NCBI GenBank assembly: GCA_963701965.1
Contig: OY969695.1
Coordinates: forward strand, 224,001-288,000
From: an uncultured Gemmatimonadales bacterium
GTDB taxonomy: Bacteria; Gemmatimonadota; Gemmatimonadetes; Gemmatimonadales; Gemmatimonadaceae
DNA: 64,000 nucleotides
Direction: 5' to 3'
Shown one piece after another: positions 16,615 to 17,900 of this stretch. A program made the position numbers and the translations under genes. The notes beneath the pieces are model-generated. The model saw only the letters and a list, made by a program, of their open reading frames with translations, was not told the origin of the DNA and ran no database searches. The first letter of the stretch is position 1; every line of letters begins with the position of its first letter.

Positions 16615-16683
16615 CTCTAGCGTTCGACATGAGCGGCGGCCGCAGTCAAGTGCAGCTTGCCGAAGGACGTCCGCTCGATGGAG
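16615..16683 (-). other. attC site interrupted by IS110-B (rest at 17851-17859)
   Basis: ...CCGCTCGATGG AG [IS] AG GAGTTAGGT. Confidence 0.88.
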
Positions 16684-16698
16684 CAACTGTGTCTCAAG

Positions 16699-17698
16699 TC
16701 AAGTGCTCCTGGATGAAGTGAGAACCGCATCGGTGCGCCAGGGTGCCTGATCGCGGACGATAGCGTTGAGGATAGTGAGTAGCTTGCGCATGCAGGCCAC
16801 GATGGCGACCTTCTTGGGCTTGCCGGCTTCAACCAGCCGGCCGTAGAAGGTCTTGATGACGGGGTTGTGACGGATCGCCGTCAGCGTGGCCATGTAGACC
16901 ACGGCGCGAACCTCGCTGCGGCCTCCCCATGTGCGTCGAACTCCCTTGCGCTTGCCCGAGTCATCGGCCAGAGGCGCTACGCCCACCAGCTTGGCGATCT
17001 GACGACGCCCGAGACGACCCAGCTCCGGCAGCGCCGAGGTCAGTGTCAGGATCGTCACCGGCCCCACGCCTTGCACGCTGTCGAGCAGTTCCTTCTGCCG
17101 CTTGAAGTGCTGCTCAAGGTGTTGATCGATGTCACCGTCGATGTCCTGCAGCTGCTTGTCGAGCGTCTTGATCACGCTGCGGATGCTGCGCACCGTGCGC
17201 GCGGTGGCACCCTCGAGCCGGTTGGACTCGGCCACACGCATGTCTAGGAGCTGACGGCGTCGCGTCATCAGGGCCGCCAACAGCTCGCGCTCGGGATCGG
17301 CAGGCAGCGTGATGTACTTGTGCCGATCCTTGTGCCGCGCCAGCACGTCGGCGAAGTCGCGCAGGCAGCGGGCGTCGACTCGATCGGTCTTGGCCAGCAC
17401 CCCCATCGACTTGGCGAACTCGCGGGCCTGGCGCGGGTTTACCCGCGCTACACTGAGCTGCGCTCGGTGCAGCGCCGTCACCAAGCCACGCTCGTAGCCG
17501 CCGGTGGCTTCGACAACCACGAGGTCTGCCTGGCTCTCCTTGGAGCTTCGCGATCAGCGCGTCCCATCCCGAAGCGTCGTTGTCGACCCGCAGATCAATG
17601 TCGAGAAGGTGCACATCAAGGTGCTCCTTGCTGACGTCGATACCTGCGTTCGGACGCGTCGCCTCGCTCGCTACCCTTCCTTGCGAATGCATGTTCAT
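16699..17698 (-). CDS. IS110 recombinase (one frameshift near 17540)
   Basis: [41 protein letters not shown]. Confidence 0.92.
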
Positions 17699-17840
17699 CA
17701 TCGACAACTGTTCGGGCTACACGGTTGGATAAGAACGGGCCAATGCGTTGACCTAATGCTCCATCACGAGCTAGAACTCAGAGGGGTAACTGGTTTGGCG
17801 CATCGACCACGAAACTACGGCACTGCTGTGCCTACTTCGG
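17670..17840 (-). ncRNA. Putative bridge RNA of IS110-B
   Basis: Four guide-like segments in the expected order: TTACCCCT, GATGGAG, ACAGTTG, GCAAG; ends approximate. Confidence 0.75.
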
Positions 17841-17900
17841 AAGATACAAGGAGTTAGGTCGCACCTCGGCTGCCGCGATACGCTCTTGCCCGTGTGGCTA

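Follow-up and report, generated by a model that had tools for sequence, protein, structure and literature searches.

Locus and element

The stretch of DNA analysed here, hereafter the window, comprises 64,000 nt of an uncultured Gemmatimonadales bacterium (assembly GCA_963701965.1, contig OY969695.1, positions 224,001–288,000 of the forward strand). It carries an array of integron gene cassettes in which one recombination site, attC, is split by an insertion sequence (IS) of the IS110 group. This element, its predicted bridge RNA and its relation to attC sites are the subject of the present report. Positions quoted are those of the window, and both the element and the array are read on the minus strand; the coordinates of all features are collected in Table 1.

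Allowing at most two mismatches, we counted 15 occurrences of the motif CTAACNCCTCCATC in the window, compared with 0.75 in shuffled sequences; 14 of the 15 are minus-strand copies located between 313 and 20497. When aligned, the array sites read GCCTAACCCCTCCATCGAGCGGAC ... GCCGCCGCTCATGTCGAACGTTAGGC with an R'' and an R' box around an imperfect palindrome; they are situated between small co-oriented open reading frames (ORFs). The boxes of attC sites follow the consensus RYYYAAC for R'' and GTTRRRY for R'. A profile constructed from nine of the sites gave 15 hits in the genome, all on the minus strand and all within the array. Cassettes near the element code for a DUF1330 protein, GNAT acetyltransferases, a DUF2867 protein and a DfrB-type dihydrofolate reductase.

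The element interrupts its attC two bases past the R'' box, and no other full copy is present in the 5.1-Mb genome. The minus-strand sequence of the locus is GACCTAACTC-CT-TGTATCTTCC ... CACTTGACTTGAGACACAGTTG-CT-CCATCGAGCGGAC. At the left junction, CTAACTC (17857–17851) is followed by CT (17850–17849) and TGTATCTT; at the right junction, ACAGTTG (16690–16684) is followed by CT (16683–16682) and CCATC (16681–16677). A long left end, with 157 nt of non-coding sequence ahead of the ATG at 17693, precedes the transposase gene, and the right end extends 15 nt past the stop codon. No sub-terminal inverted repeats of at least 7 nt were found at the element ends; the closest approach to one, an 11-nt inverted pair (I18), is located about 45 nt inward of each end and, as judged by eye, lacks a counterpart in the stretches of right end inspected for two relatives, L006 and L009. 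The IS110 and IS1111 groups are distinguished by a non-coding region located upstream or downstream of the gene, respectively (PMC11208160, PMC11187229). The upstream non-coding region, the short right end and the lack of sub-terminal repeats thus correspond to the IS110-group arrangement and not to that of IS1111.

The protein matches lead to the same group. The transposase gene is split near 17540 into open frames at 17132–17707 and 16699–17520, the larger of which matches PF01548 (51.6 bits, N-terminal DEDD/RuvC-like domain), PF02371 (63.8 bits, C-terminal domain) and the NCBIfam model NF033542, ‘IS110 family RNA-guided transposase’ (175.9 bits, cut-off 140). Among solved structures, the larger piece matches only the bridge recombinases ISCro4 (9t56, E = 2e-24) and IS621 (8wt6, E = 1e-23), over about 260 residues. 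DDSGKRKG and the further motifs that we take to be catalytic, and that would hold the DEDD residues and the serine of the SG motif, are all visible in the translations of the two frames. The IS110-group membership proposed in an earlier, sequence-only reading of this stretch is therefore supported by the domain and family matches, by bridge-recombinase homology and by the upstream non-coding region, and every coordinate and motif given in that reading was recovered at its place on the minus strand.

Table 1. Features of the element, its insertion site and the surrounding array, in window coordinates
Feature	Position	Strand	Remarks
Whole IS110-group element	16682..17850	-	1169 bp including both CT cores
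Left CT core, junction of attC left half and element left end	17849..17850	-	CT-TGTAT junction recurs in relatives
Right CT core, junction of element right end and attC right half	16682..16683	-	ACAGTTG-CT recurs in relatives
Interrupted attC, left part (R'' box GACCTAAC + TC)	17851..17860	-	Follows DUF1330 cassette ORF 17901-18197
Interrupted attC, right part CCATCGAGCGGAC ... CATGTCGAACGCTAGAG	16615..16681	-	Precedes GNAT cassette ORF 16012-~16608; profile hit from position 12
Transposase, N-terminal part	17540..17693	-	ATG at 17693, GIDVSK motif; frame lost near 17540
Transposase, C-terminal part, other frame, to stop codon	16699..17539	-	PF01548, PF02371, NF033542, IS621/ISCro4 homology
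Predicted 5' stem-loop of bridge RNA	17810..17839	-	Single-sequence fold; length and sequence variable among relatives (alignment A1)
Target-binding module	17738..17808	-	Basal stem and closing stem around internal loop
Left target guide (LTG) GTTACCCCT	17782..17790	-	5' strand of internal loop; sense = attC left half + core
Small hairpin in target loop, GAGT/GCTC stem	17768..17779	-	Helix 3, 99% of cells paired
Right target guide (RTG) GATGGAG	17759..17765	-	Exact reverse complement of CT-CCATC
Donor-binding module	17673..17717	-	Closing stem GCCC 17717-17714 / GGGT 17676-17673
Left donor guide (LDG) ACAGTTG	17705..17711	-	Identical to last 7 nt of right end
Right donor guide (RDG) AUUCGCAAG	17680..17688	-	Contains GCAAG 17684-17680; putative pairing
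-35 half TTGACT of circle-junction promoter	16697..16702	-	Overlaps stop codon; conserved in relatives
-10 half TATCTT of circle-junction promoter	17841..17846	-	Conserved in relatives
Second-copy remnant	10520..10593	-	Last 74 nt of right end, 99% identical, joined via CT to CCATCGAGCGGAC of another attC
Cassette array	1..20500	-	Genome 223769-244500, ~21 kb
Integron integrase remnant	24005..24265	+	N-terminal 85 of 315 profile positions, one internal stop; TIGR02249 75 bits, cut-off 265

A predicted bridge RNA addressed to attC

The left end is very probably the source of an IS621-type bridge RNA with two loops, one of which spells the attC position occupied here. In IS621, the LTG has the sense of the target top strand including the core, and the RTG is the reverse complement of the core and the right flank (PMC11208160); the donor loop reads the joined ends of the element likewise (Durrant et al. 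2024, PMC11208160). The same four segments are recognizable in the left end. The LTG, which includes the left target segment of the sequence-only reading (TTACCCCT, 17789–17782), agrees with the attC consensus CTAACCC-CT at 7 of 9 positions and with the occupied site CTAACTC-CT at 6 of 9. It is listed in Table 1 together with the RTG, which follows the small hairpin, and with the donor guides. The RDG would pair discontiguously with CT-TGTAT, through CAAG/CTTG, a G-T wobble, a skip of 2 nt and AU/AT; the IS621 RDG is likewise discontiguous, with nine RNA bases set against seven DNA bases (PMC11208160), and the corresponding segment of two relatives (L022 and L040) is ACAAG, an exact complement.

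Comparison of relatives places these segments in a common fold. An RNAalifold consensus of 21 diverse left ends (alignment A1) contains four helices, namely a closing stem and an inner hairpin for each of the first and second loops, with all guide segments in internal-loop strands and compensatory changes in 10 of the 16 predicted pairs. With 26 close left ends (alignment A2), a structure of 24 pairs, which includes a 10-bp basal stem, has 95.8% of its cells paired, compared with 29–35% in controls in which the partners were slid by 1–3 columns; six pairs are changed on both sides, a number reached by none of 500 shuffles. The basal stem of the target module (helix 1; GGTCGATGCG, 17808–17799, with CGCATTGGCC, 17747–17738) is paired in 97.3% of cells, and three of its pairs are altered on both sides in A2. 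The closing stem of the same module (ACC, 17794–17792, with GGT, 17753–17751) switches between GC and AU in 8 of the 21 sequences of A1, and the GAGC/GCTC hairpin in the target loop is replaced by GGGC/GCCC in the wider set. The closing stem of the donor module (helix 4) is paired in all cells (100%). Its inner hairpin (ATG, 17701–17699, with CAT, 17693–17691; helix 5) is weak here, with 78% of cells paired and a weak third pair, and is clearer, with covariation, in distant relatives. The order LTG, hairpin, RTG, LDG and RDG put forward in the sequence-only reading is thus borne out by the positions of the segments and by the comparative fold, and the guide-like segments, which that reading required to lie in loops and not in stems, occupy internal-loop strands in both alignments.

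The donor-loop hairpin (17691–17705, minus strand) reads GAUGAUGAACAUG. The weak match of the C/D-box small nucleolar RNA model sR3 at this place, on GAUGAUGA (E = 6.9), the only Rfam hit in the left end, was set aside as due to chance.

Covariation of guides and flanks among relatives

A scan of one genome per species yielded 80 related loci, with transposases 46–99% identical to that of the element. Nearly all of them end in ...ACAGTTG-CT and start with CT-TGTATCTT, and their flanks differ widely. When fixed alignment columns were used, the five non-core positions of the RTG matched the element's own right flank completely in 12 of 13 elements with full flanks and at four positions in the other one, whereas the mean match to the flanks of other elements was 1.5 of 5; none of 10000 flank permutations reached the observed agreement. 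Over all parsed loci, which comprise 24 RTG classes, the match was 5/5 in 50 of 61, 4/5 in nine and lower in two, L039, whose right end was mis-parsed, and L051. In 60 of 62 loci the LDG 7-mer repeats the 7 nt with which the element's own right end closes; six guide variants are represented, among them ACGGTTA, ACAGATG, ACAGTCG and ACGGTTG. The LTG match is less complete among the relatives (5–8 of 9 positions).

Relatives with other target loops occupy matching targets that are not attC sites: the REP-like sequence CCCC-CT-CAAGG in Ottowia (five copies) and the repeat TCTGCGC-CT-TCTGC in Variovorax. The 24 re-addressed target loops carried by one scaffold constitute a natural series, which shows that the scaffold reads about four positions, the CT core and five further positions.

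Many of the relatives (L004, L005, L007, L008, L012, L016–L021, L027, L029–L032, L034, L036, L039 and L045) contain an additional module of some 140 nt, placed between their left tip and the scaffold of the bridge RNA. Repeats of the words TGTCCAC and GTGGGCA, some of them TTATCCACA-like, abound in this module, and the ends and both guide loops of these elements are unchanged.

Recurrence at attC in two registers

The same attC position is occupied by elements with the same target loop in two other genomes, at 12 distinct sites in metagenomes and, by a truncated copy, once more in the window. A search of metagenomes with the target-loop pattern gave 28 loci, of which 21 are IS left ends and seven are chance matches inside a protein-coding gene. 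Wherever the left boundary is visible, CT[A/G]ACCC precedes the CT core (17/17, one of them as CTAACCCT, with 12 distinct flanks), and all 12 visible right flanks begin with CCATCGA. In the two other genomes, L006, with 80% protein identity, is flanked by AACCC-CT-CCATCGAGCGGAC, and L003 (1171–2339), which is 99.7% identical to the element (4 substitutions in 1169 nt), sits in CCGAACCC-CT-CCATCGAGTGG. The flanks of L003 have no match in the present genome, which consequently offers no empty-site counterpart. The presence of a 99.7% identical sequence in unrelated flanks points to recent movement of this sequence or to an assembly error made twice. The remnant in the window, followed by an attC remainder at about 10454–10521 with a profile hit from position 12, as at the element, has lost the first 1095 nt of the element and the R'' side of the attC. 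The proposal that the element is addressed to attC is thus sustained both by the covariation of guides with flanks and by this survey of homologue sites, in which elements with the same loop share one attC position.

A sister set of elements uses a second register. Ten loci with the guide GGGTTAG, together with L012, which has CGGTTAG, are inserted at GC-CT-AACCC (AACCG for L012). Their target CT belongs to the R'' box GCCTAAC and lies seven bases upstream of the main register. Downstream of the element, attC-like sequence is present in L009, L010, L011, L014 and L015; attC profile hits abut the element in L009, L011 and L014, and further attC sites lie near L014 and L015. Four loci (L012, L016, L027 and L031) lack attC-like sequence downstream, and the downstream side is unreadable in L037, for which no right end was parsed, and in L039, for which a wrong one was parsed. 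The occupation of the same motif where attC is lacking fits a reading of sequence rather than a reading of the attC fold. Together, these data show that the IS110 branch, which is the source of the programmable bridge recombinases, also guides elements onto attC, and does so in two registers.

Some copies appear to be nested: the left flank of L010 (1140–1165) is the 5' stem-loop sequence of another copy. A 96-nt contig from a soil RNA library (run X19, corresponding to 17782–17823) joins the left end of a relative to ...CCAAACCAGTTACCCCT-CT, that is, to DNA encoding the LTG of another copy, which represents a perfect left half-site. Neither transposase-less mini-elements nor orphan guide RNAs were found in the present genome.

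Circle-junction promoter and signs of expression

Joining of the two ends had been predicted to create the promoter TTGACT-17 nt-TATCTT, and both halves are indeed present at this distance (the spacer was counted by eye). A junction promoter of this kind (TTGAC at -35, 17 nt, TAnnnT) is formed by 22 of the 27 distinct end pairs of relatives, and no sigma-70-like site was found in the integrated copy. Over 17632–17808 the element is matched at 98% identity by one contig of 180 nt from a soil RNA library. DNA can contaminate such libraries, and this contig is at most a hint of transcription. The RNA-library data consist of contigs only, from which the start, end and strand of an RNA cannot be read and in which missing cover elsewhere is uninformative.

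Evaluation of the evidence

Several observations weigh against a functional bridge-RNA element addressed to this attC. The LTG matches attC only over ACCC and the CT core: its positions -5 to -7 mismatch the attC consensus, here and in all metagenome relatives, and the occupied site adds a further mismatch (ACTC, compared with ACCC in the guide). No perfect ACCCCTCCATC 11-mer is present among the attC sites remaining in the array, and the only two in the genome (C1:687461, minus strand, and C1:4615917, plus strand; about 3.8 expected from base composition) lie outside the array and are unoccupied. Folded as a single sequence, the left end scores no better than its shuffles (z = -0.18); since this was uninformative, relatives were used, and it is the comparative evidence that carries the case. 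Rfam 15 gave no family at the gathering threshold in the window, nor any bridge-RNA family at E <= 10 in 17550–17900, and consequently the likeness to the IS621 RNA is one of architecture and not of model alignment. The transposase frame is not intact, the same break is found in the 99.7% identical L003, and no other IS110-type transposase or bridge-RNA-like sequence was detected in the genome. If the break is real, nothing in this genome can therefore move the element.

These last points could mean that the element is a dead relic, immobilized by a real frameshift near 17540, in which the match of guide and target merely records a past insertion. The single copy, the lack of a helper transposase in the genome, the decay seen in the truncated second copy and the breaks elsewhere in the gene of several metagenome relatives (L087, L088, L092, L093, L103 and L111, with 206–322 codons compared with 338 in intact ones) all agree with this explanation, to which we would give a little short of an even chance. 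L003, however, carries the same break in a different attC with unrelated flanks, which indicates recent movement or a twice-made error; moreover, the presumed catalytic motifs are all present in the two frames, and the gene is open through the break in seven genome relatives as well as in the metagenome elements L099 and L101, at 89% nucleotide identity. Either the mutation is real and the sequence moved in spite of it, or the same assembly error occurred on two occasions. No programmed-frameshift signal was noticed, a by-eye look having revealed no slippery motif at the break. Of the public sequencing runs, none holds more than 34% of the sampled words; runs X1–X4 have next to no cover in bins 17520–17657, and in runs X15 and X16 only contigs of relatives, about 87–95% identical, span the break. 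These contigs differ from the window by a single base in length at 17538/17542, as do intact relatives. A loose end at 16682 in run X1, considered as a candidate empty site, appears by eye to be instead a cross-match of a homologous attC (the 20484 cassette). With its transposase frame broken near 17540, this copy is likely inactive or mis-assembled, and it is probably inert.

Selection of the target by the protein or by the folded attC, as in the case of integron integrases, with only incidental guide matches, is highly improbable. It would account for the location in attC of all 17 metagenome insertions with a visible left boundary and of the other same-guide sites with a visible left flank (the present one, L003 and L006), for the two empty perfect 11-mers outside attC and for the LTG pairing over 6 nt only. 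It is contradicted by the other-loop relatives in matching non-attC targets, with their 24 RTG classes, and by the four sister loci at GC-CT-AACCC-type sites that lack attC-like sequence downstream. Moreover, arrays are rich in near-matches, 9 of the 74 one-mismatch 11-mer sites falling inside the array, which makes up 0.4% of the genome. A different role, the active remodelling of arrays without the integron integrase IntI, in which bridge recombination of attC sites with element ends would delete, invert or fuse cassettes, is improbable, if less so than targeting by the protein or the fold. IS621 can insert, excise and invert DNA (PMC11208160), all that is left of the integrase here is a remnant of 85 profile positions, and the truncated copy at 10520–10593, from which the left 1095 nt and the R'' side of its attC are missing, might be a local trace of such activity, the only one. 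Nevertheless, the deletion junction at 10593 has no CT core and resembles an ordinary deletion, a single and broken copy is left, no rearranged array variant was seen, and an insertion would immobilize two cassettes, not mobilize them. On balance, a bridge RNA that reads the target sequence, as set out above, remains the explanation that we prefer for the insertion into attC.

Relation to known RNA-guided elements

The element shares with IS621 and ISCro4 (IS622) a DEDD/PF02371 recombinase, a long left end and a short right end, as well as a CT core at both junctions and a promoter across the circle junction (PMC11208160). As in IS621, two internal loops carry LTG, RTG, LDG and RDG in this order (PMC11208160); the top-strand sense of LTG and LDG and the reverse-complement sense of RTG and RDG are shared as well, and so, it would seem, is the discontiguous pairing of the RDG. 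There are differences as well. The protein is a distant relative (E about 1e-23); the RTG reads 5 nt past the core, whereas that of IS621 has four bases (PMC11208160), two of which are, on our reading of the same paper, the core. The LTG effectively reads 4 nt rather than seven, and the N-terminal transposase frame overlaps the 3' strand of the donor loop, unlike the transposase start in IS621. Finally, the target here is an integron attC, and the element is known from sequence alone. The target of IS621 in Escherichia coli consists of REP-type repeats.

Elements of the IS1111 group that target attC (IS1111-attC), among them ISPa21, ISKpn4, ISPst6 and ISPa25, are reportedly the subject of the works of Tetu & Holmes in 2008 and Post & Hall in 2009. 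Like the present element, they are RNA-guided and have a DEDD transposase (PMC11187229); their insertions into attC share a single orientation and a single position close to one end of the site, and would disrupt the excision of cassettes. They differ in that their guide RNA is encoded downstream of the gene, their sub-terminal inverted repeats measure 7–17 bp and their guides are in the opposite order (PMC11187229), whereas the present element has its RNA upstream and lacks such repeats. Shared family-level Pfam domains, the one-orientation attC habit and the junction promoter could suggest that the element is simply another member of this group. That assignment is hardly credible in view of the location of the non-coding region (157 nt before the ATG and only 15 nt after the stop codon), the lack of a sub-terminal inverted repeat of at least 7 nt and the closest solved structures, IS621 and ISCro4; furthermore, the bottom-strand match comes first and the top-strand match second, which is the IS110 order and the opposite of that in seekRNAs (PMC11187229).

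In the consulted parts of PMC11187229, PMC11616780 and PMC11089894, attC hunting is assigned to the IS1111 group only. The statement in the sequence-only reading that attC-targeting IS belong to the IS1111 group and have a downstream non-coding region agrees with the literature searched (full text, supplements aside), in which we found no IS110-group attC hunter. ISPpu9 and ISPpu10 offer another parallel: they are of the IS110 type and reportedly home to short intergenic repeats in their host (PMC12288879; bioRxiv 10.64898/2026.03.19.712850). Close relatives of the element in Ottowia resemble them in homing to a REP-like palindrome; in the present case, by contrast, the repeat is an integron recombination site, and each insertion alters a cassette boundary. 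One preprint reportedly links IS110 transposases with C/D-box ribonucleoproteins.

Proposed mechanism and implications

The following course of events may be envisaged from the comparison with bridge recombinases. The element would excise as a circle, whose junction would create the TTGACT-17-TATCTT promoter for both RNA and enzyme. One loop of the RNA would bind the circle junction and the other a duplex ACCC-CT-CCATC site, and strand exchange by the recombinase would take place at CT. The resulting insertion would split the R'' box from the rest of the attC and fuse the DUF1330 and GNAT cassettes into a unit that the integron integrase would no longer resolve at this site.

The reshaping of integron arrays is generally attributed to their own integrase. 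Since each such insertion parts the R'' box from the remainder of an attC, neighbouring cassettes should become locked together, which bears on the existence of static arrays, including those with resistance cassettes. The mechanism is already known from IS621 and ISCro4, and the class of target from IS1111; the gain is one of ecology and of target range. The elements described here are a second, independent lineage of attC parasites. A broader scenario is possible, but we regard it as rather doubtful: a Burkholderiales IS110 clade would have re-addressed its target loop at least twice onto attC (once to the R'' box GC-CT-AACCC and once to ACCC-CT-CCATC, seven bases further in), giving rise to an RNA-guided array parasite, independent of the IS1111-attC elements, that moves between unrelated genomes, as 99.7% identical copies in different arrays would show, fuses or freezes cassettes, including those of dfrB arrays, and could rearrange arrays that lack an integrase.

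Other features of the array region

The TIGR02249 profile found no full-length integron integrase anywhere in the genome; it recognized the remnant listed in Table 1. The interval between this remnant and the array contains a fragment of an IS1595-type zinc-ribbon transposase (21418–21972, minus strand) and a group II intron (RF02005, 186 bits) with a reverse transcriptase ORF (22035–23911, plus strand), and a second group II intron is located at 28759–30423. An IS3-family element at about 18600–19900 (minus strand), with an rve-domain ORF at 18681–19733, appears to interrupt the attC at 19909, which breaks off after CCATCGAGCGGACG and resumes as TGGAGC... Two cassettes upstream of the IS110-group element, at 18302–18538 (minus strand), this chromosomal array carries a cassette for a DfrB-type (R67) trimethoprim-resistant dihydrofolate reductase, identified by PF06442 (165 bits) and NF000331 (161.9 bits, cut-off 137).

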